Positions 2,569 through 39,069 of a stretch of 39,385 bases of DNA are shown piece after piece. Location of the stretch: IMG/VR virus record IMGVR_UViG_2534681978_000021, one strand, 5' to 3'. The notes beneath the pieces are model-generated. The model had not been told where the DNA came from. It searched no databases and saw nothing but the letters and a program-made list of their open reading frames with translations. A program made the position numbers and the translations under genes. This DNA is from a virus (Duplodnaviria; Heunggongvirae; Uroviricota; Caudoviricetes). Positions within the stretch are counted from its first letter, which is position 1. Each line of letters starts with the position of its first letter.

Positions 2569-4623
2569 TTACGCGTTATTCACTTCCACCACGATACTGT
2601 CAATCAGTACCGGGTAAGTCGCATTTTTAGTGATATCGGTCACGCGCAACTTGTCTGCCGTAAACGTGCCGACCGAAGACTGCGACAGCATGAATGGTGT
2701 CCCGTCCTTACCATCAATGACCGGCGTCACCTCAATACTGTTGTTACCGGCAAAACGGAAGCCCAGCGTATGCCATTCGTTATTAAATGCGCCGAATGAC
2801 CCCAACTTCGTGTTCTGCGCCGTGTTTCCTTTGTGATACATCACGTTAAGGTCTGTGGCATCGCTCTGTACGTAGAACGATGCCAGCAGGTTATGACCGG
2901 CATTTCCTTCCAGAGTAACCCCTTGCGGCAGGGCAGAAACCGGCCAGTACAGCGCCAGTGCGTACTGATTAGCCGTAAGCGCGCCATCGAGTTTAAAACG
3001 ACAACTGACAAGACCACCTTTACCCAGCAGGTCCGCACCATTACCAGCATCATGCTCAAGGTACCAGGGGGCTCTTCCTGTTTCCTTGGTCAGTTTCATT
3101 GCCTTACCCCCGCTGGCTCCGGCATCATCCACGATTTGAGCCTTGCCACCTCCGGCAGCCCAACCCTGTGGTGTCAACCGTCCTTCAGACTCAGATGCCC
3201 GGTAAGCAAATAGCGTACTCATCGTCGTGGTGTCTGCGGGTGGCGTGGACGGTTTTGATGGTGTATCAGGTGACGGCTTCTCATCCGGTGGTGTCACGGT
3301 CTGCCCGCGCATCAGTTCAGCCGTGCGCCCTGCATGGAGCATAATAGCTGAGGCCAGACGGTCTGAAATGACGCCCCTGCGTGCCCATGAGCTGAAATGG
3401 CTGTCACGCTGTGTCGAAACAAAACTGCCCTGGGTTCGGGATGCTGCACCGTAATACCCGACAGCCACAATATCCGGGTCTTCCGCCGGAGCATTCGTTG
3501 GCGTGCTCTGTCCATTCTCATCCGTCAGGAACGGTACAAAGAAAATTTTCTGTGCTTCCTTGCCTTTGTAGCCACCGTATACTGCCTCATATTTATCGGT
3601 GCCAGCGTTTTTCCAGTAATACGTGGTATCACCGCAAATCCACGGCACCGTGGTGGCATTTCCACTCACGCACTGCGCAGCAAGCGGAGCCAGGTCAGTT
3701 CTGAACTGCTGAACCATGGCCGTGAATAAACTATTATGCTGCTGGCTTCCTGAGGCAAGGTCTGCCTCTCCCTGCATCCAGACCACAGCCAGAAGTTTGT
3801 TTTTCGGGTTTTTCGCCAGCGCGACTTTGGTGCGGCTTACCAGGTCCTGATACAGAGGTTTACCGGCCCCCCAGCGTGAAGAATCAGCGGAAGCACCGCT
3901 GGCCTCACTGAATGAGCCGTCGGCTCCAGTGGTGAATGCTGACCCGCCACGACAACAGGGCACCAGAAGTATCCCGGCATTCTGTGGGATATAGGGAAGC
4001 AGTTTTTTGGCAATATGCAACCCCTGACCGACAGTCCCGTACTGGCCTTTTGCCAGATCAGCTTTCGGGTGGTTTATCCCGCTCATATCCTGAACATCAT
4101 GCAGGCAGTGGTCTGCCGGAATGATGTCGTTGTATGTACACGACGTACCGTTGGGCGTTACCGTACTGCGGCGTGCCAGTTGCTTAATGCGTGGGTCCGG
4201 GCGGTCAAACGAATCCGGTAACGGCAGCCCCTCGCCGTAGGCCATGCCATTTGACTGACCCGCGAGAATGACAACAAAGTAATATTCCGGCTCTGAACTG
4301 CTGCCATTCGTGCTACCGGAAGGCCCGGCGTTATCCGGTGCATTCCAGTCGGAGGGCGTGAGCGTTCCGGCCACGTCAGATGTGATTGGAATGATGCCAG
4401 TCACGCCTGAACTGGTGATTTCTGCACTGGGATTACCGGATACCGGCATTACCCATAATGGCTCTTTCGTGCTGAAGCGGATCACGCAGTCTGCGAAGGT
4501 GATCCCCCCTTTATTACCCGAAGGGCGGAAAGGGCTTTCAATAAATGCCACCGTGCCACCGGCAACCTTGACTGAAAACTCTCCGGGCATGGCGGAGAGC
4601 ATTTTCCACTTGGAGTCTGACAT
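2569..4623 (-). CDS. three-module SGNH/sialate-O-acetylesterase-family carbohydrate esterase (N-terminal ~110-aa domain, esterase core, Pro/Thr/Ser-rich linker, C-terminal ~230-aa domain)
   Basis: 684 aa; GQSNG motif at residues 122-126 and downstream WMQGEAD block typical of the SASA/SGNH esterase fold; PSPDTPSKPSTPPADTT linker. Confidence 0.7.
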   Translation of the reverse strand: MSDSKWKMLSAMPGEFSVKVAGGTVAFIESPFRPSGNKGGITFADCVIRFSTKEPLWVMPVSGNPSAEITSSGVTGIIPITSDVAGTLTPSDWNAPDNAGPSGSTNGSSSEPEYYFVVILAGQSNGMAYGEGLPLPDSFDRPDPRIKQLARRSTVTPNGTSCTYNDIIPADHCLHDVQDMSGINHPKADLAKGQYGTVGQGLHIAKKLLPYIPQNAGILLVPCCRGGSAFTTGADGSFSEASGASADSSRWGAGKPLYQDLVSRTKVALAKNPKNKLLAVVWMQGEADLASGSQQHNSLFTAMVQQFRTDLAPLAAQCVSGNATTVPWICGDTTYYWKNAGTDKYEAVYGGYKGKEAQKIFFVPFLTDENGQSTPTNAPAEDPDIVAVGYYGAASRTQGSFVSTQRDSHFSSWARRGVISDRLASAIMLHAGRTAELMRGQTVTPPDEKPSPDTPSKPSTPPADTTTMSTLFAYRASESEGRLTPQGWAAGGGKAQIVDDAGASGGKAMKLTKETGRAPWYLEHDAGNGADLLGKGGLVSCRFKLDGALTANQYALALYWPVSALPQGVTLEGNAGHNLLASFYVQSDATDLNVMYHKGNTAQNTKLGSFGAFNNEWHTLGFRFAGNNSIEVTPVIDGKDGTPFMLSQSSVGTFTADKLRVTDITKNATYPVLIDSIVVEVNNA

Positions 4624-4708: not shown

Positions 4709-5281
4709 TCACGGTACTTTTGGTGACGGAGCTGGTGAGGCAGGAAAATAACGATAAAGGGTGGAAAGGCCAATATCAAATATCAGTGCGATTTGTTTAC
4801 GGGACTCGCCATTAGCCAGCAAACGGGCGATTTGCTCCCGCTCTTTCTCTGTCAGTTTCTGAGGTCTGCCGCCATGACGCCCCTGAGCACGGGCAGCAGC
4901 AAGACCCGCGCGTGTACGTTCAATAATGAGTTCCCGCTCCATTTCCGCCAGCGCGCCCATTATATGGAAAAAGAAACGTCCCATGGGAGTGGATGTATCA
5001 ATATTGTCCGTAATGCTGCGGAAGTTAACGCCGCGTTGCCGGAGTTCTTCTGTTAAAAGGACAAGGTGCTGCATACTGCGTCCAAGGCGATCCAGTTTCC
5101 AGACCAGCAGGGTATCCCCTGGCCGGAGTCGCTTTAATGCGCGTTTAAGTCCGGGACGCTCCCTTGTCTTACCGCTTATTCTGTCTTCGAAAAACAGCTC
5201 ACATCCTGCACATTCCAGCGCATTTCTTTGTAGCGCCGTATTCTGGTCATTTGTTGACACCCTGATATACCCAATCAGCAT
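4709..5281 (-). CDS. gin: Gin-family serine DNA invertase
   Basis: 190 aa, N-terminus MLIGYIRVSTNDQNTALQRNA... and GRFFFHIMGALAEMERELIIERT nearly identical to Mu Gin. Confidence 0.95.
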   Translation of the reverse strand: MLIGYIRVSTNDQNTALQRNALECAGCELFFEDRISGKTRERPGLKRALKRLRPGDTLLVWKLDRLGRSMQHLVLLTEELRQRGVNFRSITDNIDTSTPMGRFFFHIMGALAEMERELIIERTRAGLAAARAQGRHGGRPQKLTEKEREQIARLLANGESRKQIALIFDIGLSTLYRYFPASPAPSPKVP

Positions 5282-5375: not shown

Positions 5376-5720
5376 GTGAATAAGGCGGCGAATGCTCTGC
5401 CATCGGACGGCACCGCCGTTGCCGCGAATAGACTCGCCACCCCAAGAAATATTAATGGGGTTCCCTTTGACGGGACGCAGGACATAAACATCACTTCTGG
5501 TATAACACAGCAGGATGCGGATTCCCGATATATCCAGGATATCAGGCTGGGAGCAGAGAACAGGCAGGTAATGTACGGTGGGGCATATTACTCTGCGTAC
5601 GGTAATGTTATGGCAGGCCTGCAGATTGACAGTAAAGTTGATGCTTCAAACGATTTTATAGCATTCAGACCCCTGCAAAAATTAGTCGGAGGTACATGGA
5701 TTACGGTATCTCAGTTATAA
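5376..5720 (+). CDS. alternative tail-fibre C-terminal variable module (silent in this orientation)
   Basis: frame opens at the gix site, shares the repeat-encoded peptide with the expressed fibre, then diverges; no start context of its own. Confidence 0.55.
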   Translation: MNKAANALPSDGTAVAANRLATPRNINGVPFDGTQDINITSGITQQDADSRYIQDIRLGAENRQVMYGGAYYSAYGNVMAGLQIDSKVDASNDFIAFRPLQKLVGGTWITVSQL

Positions 5721-5771
5721 ATAGTCAGTAAATAATATATTTTAAAACAGATTTATTTCCAGGAGGATTTT

Positions 5772-6293
5772 ATGGAACTAAAAAATATAACCCGTTATTA
5801 TCCTGAAAATATGCCATATGGTAATAATGTTCAGTATTTCCAGAGTGAAGATGGTAAGGATTTCTACGAATCCCTGCCATTATTCACCAAAAAATATAAA
5901 CTTTGCATAACACCTGACAGCGGCGTTATCTGCTCAATATCACAGGACGCCTCGGCGCTGTATCCTGCGGGGTTTTCTGTGGTTGAGGTCGATGAACTCC
6001 CTGAAGGCACGGATATTTCAGGAAACTGGAAGTTTGATAATGGCATAATCTCCCGTATTCCGGTTAACTACGCAAGAAAACTGGAAGCAATGCGCCAGTC
6101 ATATCTTAATCAGGCATATGAAAAAATTAATGACTGGAGAACGGAGCTACAACTGGGCACCATCAGCGATGAAGACAGAGCAGCACTTACCCAATGGATG
6201 GCATACATCAGTCAGGTGAAGAAAATGGAACTACCCGCCATTAAAACAGAAGCTGAATTTAACGCCATTAAATGGCCTGAGCAGCCACAGTAA
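5772..6293 (+). CDS. tail fibre assembly chaperone (Tfa/U-like)
   Basis: 173-aa ORF immediately downstream of the alternative fibre module inside the invertible segment. Confidence 0.75.
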   Translation: MELKNITRYYPENMPYGNNVQYFQSEDGKDFYESLPLFTKKYKLCITPDSGVICSISQDASALYPAGFSVVEVDELPEGTDISGNWKFDNGIISRIPVNYARKLEAMRQSYLNQAYEKINDWRTELQLGTISDEDRAALTQWMAYISQVKKMELPAIKTEAEFNAIKWPEQPQ

Positions 6294-21267: not shown

Positions 21268-21307
21268 ATTGCCTCCGCATAAAGGATGAATATAAAATAA
21301 ACAGGCG

Positions 21308-21387
21308 GTCAGTGTACGCTTAACTGGTAAAGTCGGTGCCTGCCTCCGGGTGGATCATGTATGCGGGTTCGACCCCCGCCACTGACC
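21308..21387 (+). other. tRNA-like sequence (7-bp acceptor stem plus canonical-looking T-arm; anticodon arm not canonical)
   Basis: GTCAGTG (21308-21314) pairs with CACTGAC (21380-21386); GCGGG-TTCGACC-CCCGC T-arm at 21363-21379; D-loop-like TAACTGGTAA. Confidence 0.25.
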
Positions 21388-27982: not shown

Positions 27983-28334
27983 TCGTGGCCGCCTCACTGA
28001 TTTGTGAAATGAGGTGCAGGGTGTGCTGCTGATTTGCCAGCACCTGACGCACCTCATCCCGCTCACGCACAAGTACCTGATTATTGCCCTCAAGACGCTG
28101 CGTCTTCTGGTGCATTCCCCATATCGCGGCAACCAGTACGGCGATAATCCCCAGCGCCGCCATGCTCGCCCCGGCAATCAGGGCCGGTAAGGGATTGTTC
28201 ACCACAGCCACAGTGCCCCCCGCAGCGCCACAACGGCACATAACAGCGCAATCATGAGCGGTCGACAGAGCTGGTTCAGACTTTCGGCAAGTCGTAGCGA
28301 CATAACCATTCATCCGCCGAACGGCGGGCCTCAA
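27813..28334 (-). CDS. inner-membrane spanin (start uncertain, probably downstream of listed start)
   Basis: TM segment LPALIAGASMAALGIIAVLVAAIW followed by Gln/Glu-rich helical sequence; directly after endolysin. Confidence 0.5.
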   Translation of the reverse strand: MRPAVRRMNGYVATTCRKSEPALSTAHDCAVMCRCGAAGGTVAVVNNPLPALIAGASMAALGIIAVLVAAIWGMHQKTQRLEGNNQVLVRERDEVRQVLANQQHTLHLISQISEAATNEKQQNIQHSEEQQSVVRRSLATVPAASVPVPDDVAERVRRAVCEIRACAAGSDPR

Positions 28335-28776
28335 GGCCGGGGAGTTTCACCCCCTTTGAATAAATCCAGCGGATATACTGCTTACAGGACGCGGGCATCT
28401 GTCCGGCATTGATAAGGCGCAGAAGCGTGGAGTTGCGGAAGTTCGTTTCACCGGCCCAGAAGATCCACGAAGCCAGCGCCACCGTCTGACCACGGGTAAG
28501 TGGCACCTGAACACGCCGGTCAATGGCCGCAAAGGCCCATTTCATGTCCTTTTCCAGCAGTTCCAGACATTCTTCATCGGTTTTTGTCATACCCGGTTTC
28601 ACATCCGGGCCGGTATGGCCGTGGCAGATGGTGGGGGTGCCGGTGGGGTCGAGATACGTGGTGTTTTCTTTCCCTTCCCAGTAGCCGGTGTAGTGCGTGG
28701 CAATAGTGAACGTCCCGGCTCCGGCCAGAACAAGGGCAATCAGCTTTTTACGCAGTGGCGCGGGGAGTTTTGGCAT
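28276..28776 (-). CDS. lys: SAR endolysin (signal-anchor-release lysozyme)
   Basis: N-terminal weakly hydrophobic Gly/Ala-rich segment LIALVLAGAGTFTIA, then TICHGHTG and NFRNSTLLRLINAG motifs of P21 R/Mu Lys-type lysozymes. Confidence 0.85.
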   Translation of the reverse strand: MPKLPAPLRKKLIALVLAGAGTFTIATHYTGYWEGKENTTYLDPTGTPTICHGHTGPDVKPGMTKTDEECLELLEKDMKWAFAAIDRRVQVPLTRGQTVALASWIFWAGETNFRNSTLLRLINAGQMPASCKQYIRWIYSKGVKLPGLEARRSADEWLCRYDLPKV

Positions 28777-28847
28777 TGTTACGCTGTCTCATGGTGTTCT
28801 CTGAGCCAGCGTAACCGTGGAAAAAAGGGGGCAGGATTTGCGGAATA

Positions 28848-29270
28848 TCAGAAAAGCCGGGGCTGCGTGCGCTCCTGATGCAGGCGACGCTGGTTGCGGA
28901 TAACGGAGTAAATCTGCGTCTCTGACATCTGGTAATGGCGGCGCAGGGTTTCAATTTTTTCACCCTGGCTCCAGCGGGAAAAAATCTCATTATTGCGCAG
29001 TTCGGTGAAAAGGGATTCACCGACCGGGAGATAATAACCACGCCCGCCCATGTACCCGGCCTGTGCGGCCGCAACCTTACGGGCAAGCATTCCCGCCTGA
29101 GCAGATTCAATCCCCTGACGGTGCAGTTCAGCACTGATCACATCAACCAGGTCACGCAGCGTGCCGGGCCAGTTCTTTTTCAGCTCATCATCAGGAATAT
29201 CATCCAGACGGTCAATCAGCGCGTGCAGCTGTTCGCTGTCACCAAACATGCTCATCTGTGTTTCAGCCAT
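28848..29270 (-). CDS. Mor/C-family transcriptional activator
   Basis: 140 aa with C-terminal HTH (ETQIYSVIRNQRR), between gemA and lys. Confidence 0.7.
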   Translation of the reverse strand: MAETQMSMFGDSEQLHALIDRLDDIPDDELKKNWPGTLRDLVDVISAELHRQGIESAQAGMLARKVAAAQAGYMGGRGYYLPVGESLFTELRNNEIFSRWSQGEKIETLRRHYQMSETQIYSVIRNQRRLHQERTQPRLF

Positions 29271-29340
29271 ACCCGCCTCCGGTCATCATTACACAGGGCA
29301 AGTTTAAAATAAAAATCCCGCGCTGTGGCGGGATTTGGGG

Positions 29341-29850
29341 TTAAAAAGGGGAGGATTCTTCATACAGCCTGCAAACGCGCTCATAACTCATCACTGTACG
29401 CGCTGACATCCCCAGCACATCCAGCATCTTGCGACGGTGCCAGCGTTTGAGACGCTCCAGCACATCCGAGGCCAGTGCGGGGTGTTGCTCCAGCCACTGC
29501 CAGTTAGCCACACCTTCGCCACCGTTCTGCGCGGCCGTCTGCGACTTCACCCAGCGGTTAAGGGCCGTTTCCCCGCCATCAGCGATAAAGCCCTGCCGGT
29601 GCATTACCTTCCAGATGGCGCGAATTTTGGCGGTCACCGTACCCGGTTTTAAGGCCCGGTTAACCGGTTTCTGACGCACTTTAAAACCGCGTTTTTTGAA
29701 AACATCCAGCACGCGGGATAACTCATCCGGTGACATATCCCGGCAACTGGATTTGCCGGTGGCTGCCAGCAGAACGAATGTATAGGTTTCATCATCCAGG
29801 GCAAGCTCGCGCTTTGCCACATGAATGGCGGATATCAGTTTCCCTCTCAT
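29341..29850 (-). CDS. gemA: GemA-like protein (Mu gp16 family)
   Basis: 169 aa, N-terminus MRGKLISAIHVAKRELALDDETY; position upstream of Mor/C. Confidence 0.65.
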   Translation of the reverse strand: MRGKLISAIHVAKRELALDDETYTFVLLAATGKSSCRDMSPDELSRVLDVFKKRGFKVRQKPVNRALKPGTVTAKIRAIWKVMHRQGFIADGGETALNRWVKSQTAAQNGGEGVANWQWLEQHPALASDVLERLKRWHRRKMLDVLGMSARTVMSYERVCRLYEESSPF

Positions 29851-30143
29851 GCTGTATCAACACTCCTGCTGATATGATAGATATTATTTTCCCGATCGAG
29901 CTGAACCCGATACTCCGGAGGAATCACAAAAATATTAAAACCATCAACAGTTTTTATTCTTGAGTAGTATTCCCCCTTATGATATCTGGCAAGTGCATTA
30001 ATCAGAGAAGCCGCCGCCAGCCCAATCAGGTATTTTTTATGAAAAATACTGATAACTTTCCGGCACAGCCATCGTGTAATGACGAATGCACCGAAAAACG
30101 ATGTGATATATAAACACCAGAACAACTGCGAACTACTGTCCAT
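29847..30143 (-). CDS. small membrane protein (low-GC cassette), stop overlaps gemA start as ATGA
   Basis: 98 aa with two hydrophobic segments; AAGGAG RBS. Confidence 0.5.
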   Translation of the reverse strand: MDSSSQLFWCLYITSFFGAFVITRWLCRKVISIFHKKYLIGLAAASLINALARYHKGEYYSRIKTVDGFNIFVIPPEYRVQLDRENNIYHISRSVDTA

Positions 30144-30321
30144 TATCTTTCTCCTTATTCAGTCTTCTGCGGCATTCGGCACAGTCATCAGGCTTTCAAA
30201 TGTATCCGGCTCGCGATTATGAGCCAGATATAACCACCGCCCACATATACTGATATTTTCACCTGTTTTAAAAAAATGATGCTTCTTAGCCATCAATGGC
30301 CGCGCCCATCCAGCGGGTAGA

Positions 30322-30696
30322 CTATTCATTAGCTTTATCCTCCATGCTGGACAGAATCATATGTATTAATGTCGGGCGTGGAGATATACGCATTTCATTA
30401 AGCGTCTGAAGGGCAGCAACAGCAGCCATTTTATCGGTGCCTCTGGCAATTTCTGCAAGAGAATGCACAATCCATAACGGACTTAACGCTACGGCTGAAT
30501 CCAGAATCATGTCATCCATAATAATTTCTGGCACATCCCGTTTGTCACATTCTTTATCCATAAAAGAAACGATTTTTTCCGCATCTTCCGGTTTCATACC
30601 TCCGGCGATAAGAATTTTACGATATTCATAAGACGTTCTTAATTCAATGCTCATATTCATCTCCTGTAACTCTGACAAGGACGTGATTTTTCTCAT
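30322..30696 (-). CDS. hypothetical protein (low-GC cassette)
   Basis: 124-aa ORF, start overlaps upstream ORF stop (ATGA). Confidence 0.5.
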   Translation of the reverse strand: MRKITSLSELQEMNMSIELRTSYEYRKILIAGGMKPEDAEKIVSFMDKECDKRDVPEIIMDDMILDSAVALSPLWIVHSLAEIARGTDKMAAVAALQTLNEMRISPRPTLIHMILSSMEDKANE

Positions 30697-30878
30697 TTAC
30701 GCCTCCCGGAAATACGAATGTATATACCGATGAGAAAATCCATAATAAACAGGAAGAGCGACATCCTGATAAAGAACCAAATGTCAGGCATAATGGACAG
30801 GTTTCCTGTAATCGCAAATATAAAACCAGTCCCCCACACTGGAACGATAATTGCGAAAAATACAAGTCTCTTTATCAT
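30693..30878 (-). CDS. small hydrophobic membrane peptide, two predicted TM helices (low-GC cassette)
   Basis: 61 aa, mostly hydrophobic. Confidence 0.45.
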   Translation of the reverse strand: MIKRLVFFAIIVPVWGTGFIFAITGNLSIMPDIWFFIRMSLFLFIMDFLIGIYIRISGRRK

Positions 30879-31426
30879 GGCGTTAACTCCCGTAATACAG
30901 CGTCCTCGGCGGTCCGTCGACGGTAATAAACAGCGTGAGCAGAATGTTCAGATATGCCAAACTTTTCGCCAATTTCCCGGAATGACAGACGGCGAGGGTA
31001 ATCGGAATCCCGTAGTGCACGTATAAGACGAACATCCTCATCAGATATACGTGTGCCGGGGCGTAACTCACCGCACTTTGTTAATCCGGCACCAATCATT
31101 CCTGCGCGGCACCTGACAGAGTCTTTATTACGTCCGAGATAATCCCCCATTTGCTGGCAGGTCATTGTCCGGGCATTTTTTCGGATAAATTTATCTTCAT
31201 CAGGTGTAAATCGCGGTCGTTTATATTTCAGCAACTCCGGGTATGTACTGCGCAATACGCCAGTCCGGTTATATACGGCCCAGACACTTCTTTTTATTCT
31301 GGCGGCAATATCCTTAACCGGGGTGGAGGAATAAAGCGCAATCAGCAGCGCATCTTCTTCAGGTGTCCACGGGCGGACATGAGCAGGTGCACGACCTTTT
31401 CGCCCCATGGGTTGTAATTTCATCAT
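30875..31426 (-). CDS. hypothetical DNA-binding-like protein with three tandem repeats
   Basis: repeats WTPEEDALLIALY... / FTPDEDKFIRKNA... / ISDEDVRLIRALR... each followed by helix-turn-helix-like sequence. Confidence 0.5.
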   Translation of the reverse strand: MMKLQPMGRKGRAPAHVRPWTPEEDALLIALYSSTPVKDIAARIKRSVWAVYNRTGVLRSTYPELLKYKRPRFTPDEDKFIRKNARTMTCQQMGDYLGRNKDSVRCRAGMIGAGLTKCGELRPGTRISDEDVRLIRALRDSDYPRRLSFREIGEKFGISEHSAHAVYYRRRTAEDAVLRELTP

Positions 31427-33121: not shown

Positions 33122-33652
33122 TTATTTATTCAGTCCGGCGTCCTGTTCAAAAGGCTCGACATAAAAACTTTCAGCGCCTTTATTCACCTTAATACCGGCA
33201 ATGCCTTTCACTGCATCCGGCTCCGCCAGGACCGCTTCCTTGTTCACTTCCTCTTTCGTGCGGATGAATCGCTCAAGCCCCATACGGCGCAGCATTTCAA
33301 TCACACCTTCCACATCACGGCTGACGCTGCATGATGGATTTCCCAGCCGCCATGACACTGTTCCGGTGGTCAGATTGGCTGTTTTGGTTTTGCCGCCGTT
33401 CGTCAGCTCATCGCGGTTGGTTTTGCACCAGTCCTGAATCCCCTTAAAAAGCACTTTGATTTCTTTTTTAAGGTTTTCAATCTGCGGCGTATAACGGGCG
33501 GTGATTTCTGCCACTTCATCATTCATCGCCGTTTCCAGCCGCAGCGCCTCTCGCTGAATATCGCCCAGGGTACGGATATCGCGGCTGACTTCTTCGCGGG
33601 TCTGCGGTGCGGCCTCGGCTACAGCCTTTAATTTTGTAACGCGTTTTGCCAT
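33122..33652 (-). CDS. gam: Gam host-nuclease inhibitor (Ku-like DNA end-binding protein)
   Basis: 176 aa; LETAMNDEVAEIT, WCKTNRDELTNGGKTKTANL, FIRTKEEVNKEA blocks match Mu Gam as recalled. Confidence 0.9.
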   Translation of the reverse strand: MAKRVTKLKAVAEAAPQTREEVSRDIRTLGDIQREALRLETAMNDEVAEITARYTPQIENLKKEIKVLFKGIQDWCKTNRDELTNGGKTKTANLTTGTVSWRLGNPSCSVSRDVEGVIEMLRRMGLERFIRTKEEVNKEAVLAEPDAVKGIAGIKVNKGAESFYVEPFEQDAGLNK

Positions 33653-36008: not shown

Positions 36009-38099
36009 TCAGGCCAGTGGATCACTTTCTTTTAATTTTGCTTCGAGCAGTTGCAATCCCCGCTGGAAATTACGCTCGTATTCTTCATCAGGTTCATCGT
36101 CAGCGACCGGTTGCTGAACGGTCACCGTATTACCCACAGGGCGGTATATGTTTTCCAGCCATGGCTCCTGCGGCTTGTGCTCCAGCACGTTGACAACCTC
36201 ATCCTCGGCATCACGGATTTTTTCCTCTGCGCGTTTACGCATACCTTTAAGGCGCTGTTGCTGTTTGTAGTATTCCGCGCTGACCGGGAAGGCTTCGCGT
36301 TTATTGCCGTCCCATACCGCCTCGCAAATCACGCTGCCATCCGGGCGACGAACGGTAATTCGTTCGGCATCATGAATGTCATAGCTGATAAGCACCTTGC
36401 GGCCATGCTCATCACGCAGCTCGGGCGCGTAGTAAATATTGTTCAGCCAGCGTATTTCACAGCGTCTTACAGGGCGCTCCACCATCGGCCGGAACATGTC
36501 CCGCAATTCCACATCGGACAGCCATTCAATTTCCGTATCCTCTTCTGCCAGGCGTTTTTTTCTGAACTCCGCCGGGCTGTAATGCTTGCCGTTCGGCTTC
36601 ACCGGTAATTCATCGTGCGGCCGGTTGTTGTACCACTCAACACCGTCACGAATGGCATCAATCAGTTCAGACCAGGACGGTAAATCACGCATCGCTGACT
36701 GCTGCCGGGCGTTCAGCCGTTTGCCCTGTTGCAGGGCAGTAAATGCCGAGCGTAAATCGCGGTTGGTTTTACGTAACGTCTCGCGATCTGCACCTTTCCC
36801 GAAATAGGTGCGGTATCTGCGGGCTATGCGCATCGGTAATGTGCGGTTAAGCCGTTCGATAATGCCCCGTCCCTGCGGGTTACCGGCAATTCCGGTCGGG
36901 TGATTAATCCCCAGTCGCGGCAGTATCCCCACAATCTCTTTATCCAGGATGTCGGCCGTTTCCCCGGAGCCGTTATCCGAGTAATACAGAAACGGTTTGC
37001 CGTGATGGCGAATACCGTGCTGTATGGCGCCGGCTACGGCGAAAACATTTTCAGCCAGGTCAAGGCTCCAGCCCACCACAAAGCGCGTGCCACCGTCGAT
37101 AACAAAGGTCACTTCCGGTGCAAATGGCCGCCCGTGAACCGGGTGCCTGCATTTCAGCTTCATGCCGTGACCGTCACCAATCCAGACATAATTAACCGGC
37201 ATTTTTGACCAGTCGCGGCGCGTGAATCCCTCAAGCTGGCGGTATTCACTGCCGGTCACCCGGCCTTTTTGTTTCACCACTTCCGGCAATTTTTTCATTG
37301 CGCGGCGAATAGTGTCATAAGAGGGCATGATATCGAGCATATAAGGCTCATCAGCGTGCCGGTGCTGCCATTCGGCGACAAAATCCTCGTAAGCCTCGGT
37401 CATTGGTCGGCCGTTTGACTGGCGATACTGCGCCAGAAATTCGGGCAGCCAGTTAATATCTTCGGCTTTTATTTCCTGGCGTTTACCCGGTGCCAGTAAA
37501 AGCAGGCGTTCAGCGGCGTTCTGTGCCTTGTTAAAGGCCGCAATCCAGCGTTTCAGCGTGATTTCACTCAACGCGCGGCGGTTTCCCTTTTTGGCGTTCG
37601 CTGTCTCAACCATTGCCACAATGCGCTCGTCCAGTTGTGAGCGTGACAGACGGTCAACAATAAACCGGATAGCTTTAGCGCAGCTGAAACCGGGTTGTTG
37701 CGCGAATTTCAGCACCTCGCTGACAATCGCGATTCGTGCATCAGCCACCTGGCGCTGGTTTTCAGTCAGGGCATTGAGGCGTTCGACCATCAGTTGTGGT
37801 GAACCGCGATATGCCTCCACCGCATCAACCACGTCAGGTGAGCGTCTGGCCTTTGTCACCACCGGAGCCGGTGATTCGTCGGCTTTTTGCGTCATCAGTT
37901 GCAGGGCGTAGCGTTCACGCAATGCCTGCTGCGTCACTTCAGGTAAACAGTCGATGCTGTATTCAGTTGCTTTAGAGCCTGAGCGACGACGGGAACAACA
38001 GCTTTTCCCTTGTGCGTAACGTTGTAATGCCTGGCGAATACCTTTTGTTGTAGCAGGCATTCCGGGCGCGCCAATCAGTTCTTTTGCAATGACATACAT
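36009..38099 (-). CDS. A: DDE transposase (MuA-like)
   Basis: 696 aa between ner and B; candidate DDE residues in VWIGDGHGM, YYSDNGSGE and downstream E; N-terminal DNA-binding domain. Confidence 0.85.
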   Translation of the reverse strand: MYVIAKELIGAPGMPATTKGIRQALQRYAQGKSCCSRRRSGSKATEYSIDCLPEVTQQALRERYALQLMTQKADESPAPVVTKARRSPDVVDAVEAYRGSPQLMVERLNALTENQRQVADARIAIVSEVLKFAQQPGFSCAKAIRFIVDRLSRSQLDERIVAMVETANAKKGNRRALSEITLKRWIAAFNKAQNAAERLLLLAPGKRQEIKAEDINWLPEFLAQYRQSNGRPMTEAYEDFVAEWQHRHADEPYMLDIMPSYDTIRRAMKKLPEVVKQKGRVTGSEYRQLEGFTRRDWSKMPVNYVWIGDGHGMKLKCRHPVHGRPFAPEVTFVIDGGTRFVVGWSLDLAENVFAVAGAIQHGIRHHGKPFLYYSDNGSGETADILDKEIVGILPRLGINHPTGIAGNPQGRGIIERLNRTLPMRIARRYRTYFGKGADRETLRKTNRDLRSAFTALQQGKRLNARQQSAMRDLPSWSELIDAIRDGVEWYNNRPHDELPVKPNGKHYSPAEFRKKRLAEEDTEIEWLSDVELRDMFRPMVERPVRRCEIRWLNNIYYAPELRDEHGRKVLISYDIHDAERITVRRPDGSVICEAVWDGNKREAFPVSAEYYKQQQRLKGMRKRAEEKIRDAEDEVVNVLEHKPQEPWLENIYRPVGNTVTVQQPVADDEPDEEYERNFQRGLQLLEAKLKESDPLA

Positions 38100-38100
38100 A

Positions 38101-38349
38101 TCATGACGCCTTTCTCATATAGCTCTTAACCTGGTATCTACTGGGCCAGATTTCTTCAGGCGATACCCCAAGAGCATCAGCAATTATTTGCTGATACGGG
38201 CGGCAAGGAGTACGTAATACGCTTTTCAGCGAGTCCCTGCTGTAACCAGCCTTTAAAGATAAAGAGCGCAGTGATAAGCCAGCCATGTGTAGGCGCGCCT
38301 TGATGATTTCTGGCGGCCAATCGTGATCTGAAACTTCTCTTCTACTCAT
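38101..38349 (-). CDS. ner: Ner-like DNA-binding protein
   Basis: 82 aa, C-terminal IIADALGVSPEEIWPSRYQ matches Mu Ner IIANALETKPEVIWPSRYQ as recalled. Confidence 0.85.
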   Translation of the reverse strand: MSRREVSDHDWPPEIIKARLHMAGLSLRSLSLKAGYSRDSLKSVLRTPCRPYQQIIADALGVSPEEIWPSRYQVKSYMRKAS

Positions 38350-38538
38350 ACTTCCTCTATCCTAAAAAGTTACCCGCGCGGATATTCGTACGGATATCTG
38401 TACGGGTAAATAATGCATCACTAAAAATACCAAATCAAGGTATTTTTGGTATTTTCCTTGTTTTTTCTTTTATCCTTATTTTTCAATTGGATACACAGAA
38501 AGAAACCTTTCATTAGAAAAGCACCAAGAGGTATCTTT
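38350..38538. promoter_or_regulatory. divergent early-promoter/operator region between ner and c
   Basis: AT-rich; dyads TTACCCG..CGGGTAA (38374-38416) and ATACCAAA..TTTGGTAT (38423-38450). Confidence 0.5.
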
Positions 38539-39069
38539 ATGTCGCAGGGAAAAGAACCTGTTATTGAACGTATTGGGATGCTTACAAAACGCTATCCTTC
38601 AAGAAGTGCAGCTGCCAGAGCGTGGGGAATTAATATCAACACATTAAACAGCTATTTCAAGGGAGGGCAAACACAACCAGCCCCAAGAGAAAGCATTCTT
38701 ATACGAATTTCTAAAAGTGAAGGTGTTAGTCTTGAGTGGCTTAAAGAGGGCAAGGGAGAATCACCAAAAGACATTGGTATTTCTGGTGATTTTGGTTGTT
38801 CTGGTGATAAGGGAGATCAGCTTACACAGATGCTTTCATTCCTCACGAAAGACGAACGAGAACAACTAACCAATCTCCTTGCTCGCAAAGGTGTAGAGAC
38901 TGTTCTGACACTACTGGATAAAGAAAACCAGGATTTATTACAACTAGAGGGCAGGAAGCGCCTGGCTGCTTTGATGATTGTGGATATGCCTGACGATAGT
39001 GTCAGAGAGATTTTGGAAAAAACCGAGACAAGTAGGCAATCAAATCCGGTAGAATCTAAAGCGGGTTAG
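38539..39069 (+). CDS. c: repressor c-like protein
   Basis: 176 aa from ATG with AAGAGG RBS; transcribed divergently from ner toward the prophage end as in Mu; the ORF-track start at 38446 runs into the AT-rich operator. Confidence 0.6.
   Translation: MSQGKEPVIERIGMLTKRYPSRSAAARAWGININTLNSYFKGGQTQPAPRESILIRISKSEGVSLEWLKEGKGESPKDIGISGDFGCSGDKGDQLTQMLSFLTKDEREQLTNLLARKGVETVLTLLDKENQDLLQLEGRKRLAALMIVDMPDDSVREILEKTETSRQSNPVESKAG

Follow-up and report, generated by a model that had tools for sequence, protein, structure and literature searches.

A probable accessory slot of four small genes in the early operon of a Mu-like Escherichia coli prophage

Phage Mu carries, in the semi-essential early region that separates gp12 from gemA and at the same early-operon position as the locus described here, the small ORFs gp13, gp14 and gp15 (formerly E14, E15), whose GC content is below that of their flanks. 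Mu gp13 is a Cys-rich soluble protein of 60 aa and gp14 a soluble protein of 100 aa, and a gap and the reverse ORF gp15 lie before gemA. In SfMu, gp14 (YP_009152200) is encoded just upstream of gemA and is followed by a Mu gp14-like gene, and the Yersinia phages vB_YpM_3, 5, 6 and 23 have ORFs equivalent to SfMu gp14. Morons of temperate phages, a term defined on lambdoid phages, are extra genes of deviant GC content that lie between conserved genes; a classical moron brings a promoter and a terminator with it and is active in the prophage state. Superinfection-exclusion activity has been shown for small early-region genes of Fc02, a Mu-like phage of Pseudomonas (PMC9936078). GemA itself is still uncharacterised at the molecular level according to a 2025 preprint (PMC12407980).

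The DNA analysed here (IMG/VR record IMGVR_UViG_2534681978_000021; 39,385 nucleotides, hereafter the window) is essentially one complete Mu-like E. coli prophage, whose genes run along the minus strand. We drew its layout from the ORF list and from the way RefSeq annotates the near-identical FORC_069 locus of E. coli. In window order, the late genes are placed after Mom and the Gin-type invertase and before lysozyme, and the early region extends beyond Gam through the B and A transposition genes up to the repressor end near 39 kb. The AT-rich kilobase before gemA holds four small genes, one more than the three noted in an initial annotation of this DNA. The ORFs of that annotation are borne out at their coordinates, on the minus strand; its gene count is not, since a fourth gene, of 65 aa, was overlooked. 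The features to which we refer are the following.

209-946, Mom
4709-5281, Gin-type invertase
28276-28776, lysozyme (endolysin)
28848-29270, mor
29313-29336, minus strand, terminator-like hairpin with a 9-bp stem and then a T-run, immediately past gemA
29341-29850, minus strand, gemA (gp16 family)
29847-30143, minus strand, gene for a 98-aa protein with a probable N-terminal TM helix and a beta domain (phrog_17269)
30133-30329, minus strand, gene for a putative zinc-binding protein of 65 aa (phrog_2358), frameshifted in the window
30322-30654, minus strand, gene for an acidic, all-alpha protein of 110 aa (phrog_1988); the ORF is open to 30696 (124 aa)
30693-30878, minus strand, gene for a 61-aa two-TM hairpin peptide, from its ORF and hydropathy
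30875-31426, minus strand, gene for a 183-aa SANT/Myb- and HTH-like protein, the upstream neighbour of the 61-aa gene
33122-33652, Gam, in the early region

The slot formed by these four genes is bounded by conserved genes, gp11, gp12 and the SANT-like gene on one side and gemA on the other. It sits between gp12 and gemA, in the variable part of the Mu-type early region, as assigned earlier. The downstream anchor is a clear gemA gene (Pfam GemA PF06252, E = 1.2e-29; ‘gp16 family protein’ in RefSeq), and of the coding-strand sites downstream of the slot, the hairpin beyond it most clearly resembles a terminator. The 183-aa protein at the upstream edge has weak Pfam matches to Myb_DNA-binding and HTH_AsnC and belongs with phrog_323, ‘transcriptional regulator, D5-like’ (E = 2.5e-53); its stop overlaps the start of the 61-aa gene as ATGA.

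The approximately 1 kb before gemA had been described as AT-richer than the flanking phage DNA, and this survives a windowed GC check. Positions 29851-30874 have a GC content of 41.0%, where the mean over the prophage body is 55.2% (sd 4.0), a deviation of z = -3.55. Of the 1-kb windows in that body, only 0.2% reach so low a value, and the stretch can fairly be called compositionally foreign. GC3 of the four slot genes lies at 0.38-0.47, below the 0.55-0.66 of gemA, mor and lysozyme. Mu (45-47% GC) and SfMu (44-47%) likewise have an AT-rich slot between flanks of 53-55%; low GC is thus a property of the position, rather than the mark of a recent event here. The region is one nucleotide shorter in the window (2201 bases) than in all near-identical E. 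coli genomes (2202 bases).

All four ORFs behave as genes. Measured against the copy in an O157:H7 prophage, with the 65-aa gene represented by its intact FORC_069 sequence, each is under purifying selection (dN/dS 0.06-0.26), and synonymous change exceeds non-synonymous change in every case (Fisher p 0.005 to 9e-10). Hundreds of genomes already have the four genes annotated, as hypothetical proteins, and three of the products belong to PHROG families (1988, 2358 and 17269), all of unknown function. Nothing significant came of scanning the four proteins against Pfam, NCBIfam and PADLOC. The homology search and structure prediction that had been proposed as a check matched PHROG families and gave no Pfam, NCBIfam, PADLOC or structural lead to function. 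The description of the products as small membrane proteins fits two of the four, which look membrane-associated, and does not fit the other two.

The 61-aa gene, first of the four on the coding strand, encodes a peptide with hydrophobic segments at residues 5-23 and 36-54, with Kyte-Doolittle 19-mer maxima of 2.38 and 2.02, in agreement with the two TM segments assigned to it earlier. The N-terminus is basic, the C-terminus ends in a basic tail (RISGRRK), and R38 and D47 lie inside TM2. Because both termini are basic, the positive-inside rule suggests a hairpin with both ends in the cytoplasm (N-in/C-in). The gene is under purifying selection (dN/dS 0.26, p = 0.005, against the O157:H7 prophage copy), and it is a facultative member of the slot: it occurs in 109 of 5426 complete E. 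coli genomes, 232 of which hold the region. In some prophages of the same lineage it is replaced by genes of 103 and 116 aa, and in others it is accompanied by genes of 75, 103 and 116 aa. The peptide has no match in Pfam, PHROG, NCBIfam or PADLOC, and its sole match in the phage collection is in the Mu-like insert of LC727881, an Stx phage record. We considered and rejected two identities for it. Mu gp13 is of similar length (60 aa), but it is Cys-rich, soluble and unrelated. With class II holins and pinholins the peptide has in common its pair of TM segments, short N-terminus and basic C-terminal tail; unlike a holin gene, however, its gene lies in the early operon, does not adjoin the endolysin gene but is about 2 kb upstream of it, and is missing in half of the relatives. 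A comparison with the holin families of Pfam and PHROGs likewise gave no match.

The next ORF can be read as 124 aa, and the initial annotation took it to be translationally coupled to the 61-aa gene. The ATGA overlap of the two ORFs is present, but the protein most likely starts at Met15 (ATG at 30654) and has 110 aa, which makes coupling doubtful. AGGAG stands 6 nt before the Met15 ATG, PGAP and every homologue use the equivalent start (MSIEL), and where the upstream 61-aa gene is missing the corresponding ORF is just 111 aa long. The phrog_1988 HMM matches the 124-aa ORF with E = 1.9e-43, and the alignment pairs residues 15-123 with profile positions 1-105 of 106. The gene has a dN/dS of 0.16 against the O157:H7 prophage copy. 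A profile search found 63 clusters, all from E. coli, Shigella, Salmonella or Citrobacter and all labelled hypothetical except for one RefSeq record, ‘HEAT repeat domain-containing’. The homologues in SfMu (gp14) and in the Yersinia Mu-like phage ORFs are 33-36% identical. An AF2 model from a 29-sequence alignment has seven helices and is all-alpha, at low confidence (pLDDT 63). A Foldseek comparison of this low-confidence model with the PDB gave nothing below E = 4.9, and the best hit in a PDB sequence search with the family profile had an E of 0.07, which is not meaningful.

The 178-bp ‘gap’ that seems to separate the 124-aa and 98-aa ORFs is where the 65-aa gene lies. PGAP annotates this Cys/His protein in all near-identical E. 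coli genomes. The window has a 1-nt deletion in a C-run at 30191-30192 (CC, compared with CCC in FORC_069), and the frameshift leaves a 56-aa ORF (30159-30329) from which the C-terminal CxxC motif is lost. The window copy has thus suffered either a true frameshift inactivation or a homopolymer sequencing error. When repaired, the sequence matches phrog_2358 with E = 4.7e-34, a value that applies to the 65-aa form and not to the frameshifted window copy without CxxC. Homologues found by tblastn occur in 332 phage records, 289 of them Pseudomonas (e.g. members of Pbunavirus), and also in Klebsiella and Pantoea phages. The conserved positions are the equivalents of H18, C29, C49 and C52, and the family pattern GW.RP..K.H[FY]F...S[IL]C..W...DC..C suggests a small zinc-binding fold. 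The intact FORC_069 copy has a dN/dS of 0.06.

The 98-aa gene has AAGGAG 7 nt before its ATG, and its stop overlaps the gemA start as ATGA, as had been reported. The phrog_17269 HMM covers the protein from end to end (E = 8.5e-66, residues 1-98 with profile positions 1-98). It was previously described as a membrane protein; one N-terminal TM helix is probable, but the protein has no overall hydrophobic character, and its hydropathy is borderline, with a 19-mer maximum of 1.45 in the window allele and 1.82 in the O157 allele. The AF2 model, again of low confidence (pLDDT 69), has a helix at residues 3-55 and four short strands within residues 61-93. The protein thus probably starts with a single TM helix, continues in a juxtamembrane helix and ends in a small four-stranded beta domain; we predict an N-out/C-in topology for it. 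Fold searches with the two low-confidence models (pLDDT 63 and 69) were uninformative. The family is very narrow: among 5.8 billion proteins we found 6 clusters, for which every named source is E. coli, and a HMMER scan of 1.84 billion representatives added one further credible remote relative, P0022. This Salmonella protein has 101 aa, is 41% identical to the 98-aa protein over 70 residues and matches phrog_17269 at 6e-11. Synteny then located a 95-aa Salmonella member, which is 62% identical to P0022.

Among 216 E. coli genomes with the 98-aa gene, about 64 carry the window-type allele and about 146 the O157-type allele. These alleles are deeply separated, with 51% aa identity and a dS near 2, at which synonymous sites are saturated. 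The gene as a whole has a dN/dS of 0.16 against the O157:H7 prophage copy, and constraint is uneven along it, with 0.02 over codons 1-30, the part that specifies the membrane helix, and 0.23 in the rest. Diversifying selection on the C-terminal domain was considered as the cause of the split and rejected, since dS is near 2 gene-wide and dN/dS of that part is 0.23. Because dS is saturated along the whole gene and dN/dS in its less constrained part is still only 0.23, the allelic split is, on the pattern of substitutions, an ancient divergence that was moved by recombination.

The surroundings of the 98-aa gene point the same way. Nucleotide identity between the window and the O157:H7 prophage is 92-100% across most of the early region. 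It dips to 48-68% exactly over the 98-aa gene, with flanks at 92-98%, and identity is 58-80% over segments of the SANT-like gene, mor and the gemA 3' end. The window-type 98-aa allele is found with the 61-aa gene and, in one prophage (L007), without it, so the parts assort independently. These comparisons show slot genes being exchanged one by one, through recombination, between related prophages. A repeat search of 29.3-31.5 kb gave short chance matches and no flanking repeats that would mark an insertion.

The initial annotation regarded the kilobase as a horizontally acquired cassette. A single, recent acquisition does not fit the distribution of its genes: the region is present in 232 of the 5426 complete E. 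coli genomes, the trio of 110-, 65- and 98-aa genes is at the same position in every inspected prophage of the lineage, and the 61-aa gene is found in 109 of the 232. The slot has other occupants elsewhere, namely the genes of 75, 103 and 116 aa in E. coli, a dATP/dGTP pyrophosphohydrolase gene and genes of 55, 88 and 108 aa in Salmonella, and, in Mu and SfMu, Mu gp13/gp14. The prophages that encode P0022 are Mu-like, and the 110-family proteins encoded alongside it are named Salmonella in databases. Their gene order is gp12, SANT-like, 108 aa, (55 aa), dATP/dGTP pyrophosphohydrolase, 106 aa (the 110-aa homologue), 101 aa (the 98-aa homologue), 88 aa and GemA. In a third lineage, the order is 108 aa (110-family), 95 aa (98-family) and GemA. 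A 110-aa gene followed by a 98-family gene near gemA is thus seen in the E. coli Sp18-type, Salmonella L009-type and L024-type prophages, with the 65-aa gene between the two in the E. coli type only. In other Mu-like prophages, what comes after the 110-aa homologue is either a Mu gp14-like gene or a DUF2513-like gene of 136-138 aa on the reverse strand.

Set beside Mu, the slot corresponds in position, small gene size and low GC, and not in content. The four window proteins had no tblastn match in Mu, whose gp13, gp14 and gp15 are unrelated to them, and where Mu has a gap and the reverse gp15 before gemA, the window has the overlap of the 98-aa stop with the gemA start. SfMu gp14, a homologue of the 110-aa protein, is in the same PHROG and 33% identical over 83% of the query. 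Downstream of these homologues the two phages diverge, SfMu with its Mu gp14-like gene and the window with the 65- and 98-aa genes. Of the four proteins, the 110-aa one alone has counterparts in SfMu and in the Mu-like phages of Yersinia. The four genes are not core early genes of Mu-like phages. Conservation as core genes of related Mu-like phages had been named as the outcome that would speak against accessory cargo, and the comparison splits: the genes are conserved within their lineage, yet they are not core. Their accessory character stands, as none of the four is in phage Mu.

With morons, the slot genes share low GC, a position between conserved genes, facultative presence and small, accessory-type products. 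They are unlike classical morons in that no promoter-terminator pair was found flanking them and their starts and stops overlap those of their neighbours. A crude consensus scan counted 5 promoter-like sites in the slot, against 7.2 expected from shuffles, no internal terminator signal rose above the shuffled expectation, and an Rfam scan of 27-39.4 kb gave nothing credible. So crude a scan could overlook an internal promoter that is weak or not of the sigma-70 type, from which the lysogen might express the genes. Past the slot, the first clear terminator is the one that follows gemA. All four genes are on the same strand as the early operon, and they overlap or nearly abut one another and both neighbours. 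Since they overlap their neighbours and show no promoter or terminator of their own, transcription from the early promoter seems likely. The slot genes are probably made from the early lytic operon and silent in the repressed lysogen.

The reading we favour, with somewhat better than even confidence, is that the AT-rich kilobase is an accessory slot of the early operon, with four independent, exchangeable genes for dispensable early factors that act on the host. As an accessory-gene slot of an Sp18-type Mu-like prophage, it would hold four independent small genes: the facultative 61-aa gene, the 110-aa gene, the putative zinc-binding 65-aa gene and the 98-aa gene with its presumed membrane anchor. 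Upon induction or infection, these would be transcribed from the early promoter along with the transposase, Gam and GemA. The four products may then serve as dispensable early factors acting on the host, which we consider the weakest step of the proposal. The 61- and 98-aa proteins would be at the inner membrane, where they might disturb a host membrane protein or block the entry of competing phage DNA during lytic growth, and the soluble 110- and 65-aa proteins could bind host targets in the cytoplasm.

The initial annotation had suggested superinfection exclusion, abortive infection or a toxin/immunity-like module. Taken as protection of the lysogen, such a module would be expressed from the prophage in defence of the host cell. 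Prophage exclusion genes typically have a low GC content and encode small hydrophobic products, and the 61-aa hairpin, with its charged TM2 and basic tail, resembles small membrane-active peptides. The exclusion activity reported for small genes close to the immunity region and the early region in a Mu-like phage of Pseudomonas offers a precedent (PMC9936078). The Fc02 genes and the slot genes are alike in being small and lying inside or beside the early lytic operon of a transposable phage, but the Fc02 exclusion genes sit by ner and the repressor, unlike the slot, and exclusion by slot genes is conjecture. Against lysogen protection, neither the four proteins nor the SANT-like neighbour matched any PADLOC-DB v2 family at E <= 1, promoter sites are not enriched, no terminator isolates the genes, and they overlap the repressor-controlled early operon on the same strand. 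Expression after induction, to which this tight packing points, weakens the lysogen-protection readings; exclusion during lytic growth is compatible with it. An obligate toxin-antitoxin or immunity pair is contradicted by the occurrence of the 61-aa gene (109 genomes, against 232 with the region), which is found with and without its neighbours and so forms no obligate pair with the 110-aa gene; 110-aa homologues found without 98-family genes also argue against obligate pairing. The 65-aa member, moreover, is broken in the window with no visible consequence. A literature search by RefSeq protein accessions found no papers. The roles put forward earlier thus lack the family matches, regulatory signals and co-occurrence looked for here, and we consider lysogen protection unlikely.

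To the same degree improbable, in our estimate, is that the 110- and 98-aa proteins are partners of GemA, a lineage-specific extension of the gem operon that might, for example, tether GemA to the membrane or modulate it. This idea draws on gene order: a 110-aa gene, a 98-family gene and gemA come in that order in three diverged lineages, gemA is the immediate neighbour of the 98-family gene in L024 as in the window (with the ATGA overlap in the window), and 110-aa homologues are always two genes or fewer from gemA (SfMu, L013-L016, L022-L023). The strong constraint on the N-terminal helix of the 98-aa protein (dN/dS 0.02 at dS near 2) would also suit a partner. However, Mu carries GemA with neither protein, many prophages have a 110-aa homologue without a 98-family gene, and L009 has the 88-aa gene between its 101-aa gene and gemA. 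Both 98-aa alleles pair with nearly identical GemA N-terminal halves, and adjacency to gemA may merely reflect the position of the slot.

A bolder form of these ideas, which we hold to be slightly less probable still, is that the 110- and 98-aa proteins form a conserved module of two proteins, specific to Mu-like phages, that works together with GemA, for instance by bringing GemA or some host target to the inner membrane, or that the 61-aa peptide is a new membrane-active factor, produced early, by which competing phages are excluded in lytic growth. A functional link between the pair and GemA is possible given how little is settled about GemA at the molecular level (PMC12407980). That the ORFs are chance frames or decayed remnants in AT-rich spacer DNA, to which the frameshifted 65-aa gene and the want of a curated family match for any of the four might lend colour, is refuted for practical purposes by the significant purifying selection on all four; the length-conserved homologues in hundreds of genomes, the PHROG families and the properly spaced Shine-Dalgarno motifs before the 110- and 98-aa starts also speak against it.

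The slot is real yet ordinary, and nothing in it should surprise a phage specialist. If the accessory-slot reading is true, it adds one more AT-rich accessory slot to the early operons of transposable phages, mainly as a catalogue entry, and it would be a defined place in which to seek new small factors that target the host or competing phages. It is relevant to Mu-like prophages of E. coli, O157:H7 included, and of Salmonella. The 98-aa gene, with its two ancient alleles and near-invariant membrane helix, makes a compact test case for gene-by-gene mosaic exchange. The recurrent 110-aa/98-aa pair before gemA may offer a handle on GemA, and it is the one feature here that we think worth an experiment.

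Within the AT-rich accessory slot upstream of gemA, the 65-aa gene of the phrog_2358 family is out of frame, because a run of cytosines reads CC in the window versus CCC elsewhere:

30133-30329, minus strand: 65-aa phrog_2358 gene, with a 1-nt deletion in the C-run at 30191-30192

The extra C was checked directly in one genome, that of E. coli FORC_069, which carries a near-identical prophage; in other near-identical complete E. coli genomes the matching spans are 2202 bases long against 2201 in the query, implying that they too have the extra base. The frameshifted gene is either a recent pseudogene or the product of a homopolymer sequencing error.

The slot has other occupants in related prophages. 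A reverse-oriented gene for a DUF2513-like protein of 136-138 aa (phrog_585) replaces the 98-aa gene in other Mu-like prophages of E. coli and Salmonella, and the slot of a Salmonella-type Mu-like prophage (L009) holds a nucleotide pyrophosphohydrolase gene:

L013-L015, 3274-3690, reverse: DUF2513-like gene (phrog_585)
L022-L023, 2777-3187, reverse: DUF2513-like gene (phrog_585)
L009, 4735-5682: dATP/dGTP pyrophosphohydrolase gene (PF04447)

The DUF2513-like gene shares its reverse orientation with gp15 of Mu and needs its own promoter, which makes it more likely than the 98-aa gene to be expressed in the lysogen. P0061, a 130-aa homologue of the window's 110-aa protein, has the C-terminus ...AEVSDGEARED, with which the 101-aa member of the 98-aa family also ends. 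It looks like a fusion of these two proteins, left by the loss of the 98-family gene through an in-frame deletion.

Further mosaic patches appear when the window is compared with an O157:H7 prophage (L008). Nucleotide identity is 58-82% across 28822-29478 (mor and the 3' end of gemA) and 30918-31157 (the middle of the SANT-like gene), versus 92-100% in the rest of the early region. About 70 nt (29271-29340) separate gemA and mor in the window lineage, whereas the two genes overlap in Mu and SfMu, and the gap contains a hairpin:

29313-29336: strong terminator-like hairpin

This spacing and the hairpin suggest that mor expression is controlled differently in the window lineage.

Other features lie elsewhere in the window:

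about 21306-21385 (L002 7-86), plus strand: 'tRNA-OTHER' (RefSeq, FORC_069)
2569-4623, minus strand: gene for a 684-aa protein; domains SASA (sialate O-acetylesterase-like) and DUF6645
38001-39000: low-GC island (39-46%), repressor end
5501-6000: low-GC island (39-46%), invertible tail-fibre segment
1-2500: low-GC island (39-46%), between mom and the esterase gene

In FORC_069, whose prophage is identical, the 'tRNA-OTHER' annotation adjoins the gene for head morphogenesis; scanning the whole window with ARAGORN yielded no tRNA. A second gene of accessory cargo, the 684-aa SASA/DUF6645 gene, lies at the prophage's right end, between the genes for Gin invertase (4709-5281) and Mom (209-946), where GC content is low (40-50%). 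The window has three further low-GC islands, so that the slot preceding gemA is one of roughly four areas of the prophage that are AT-rich and accessory or variable.
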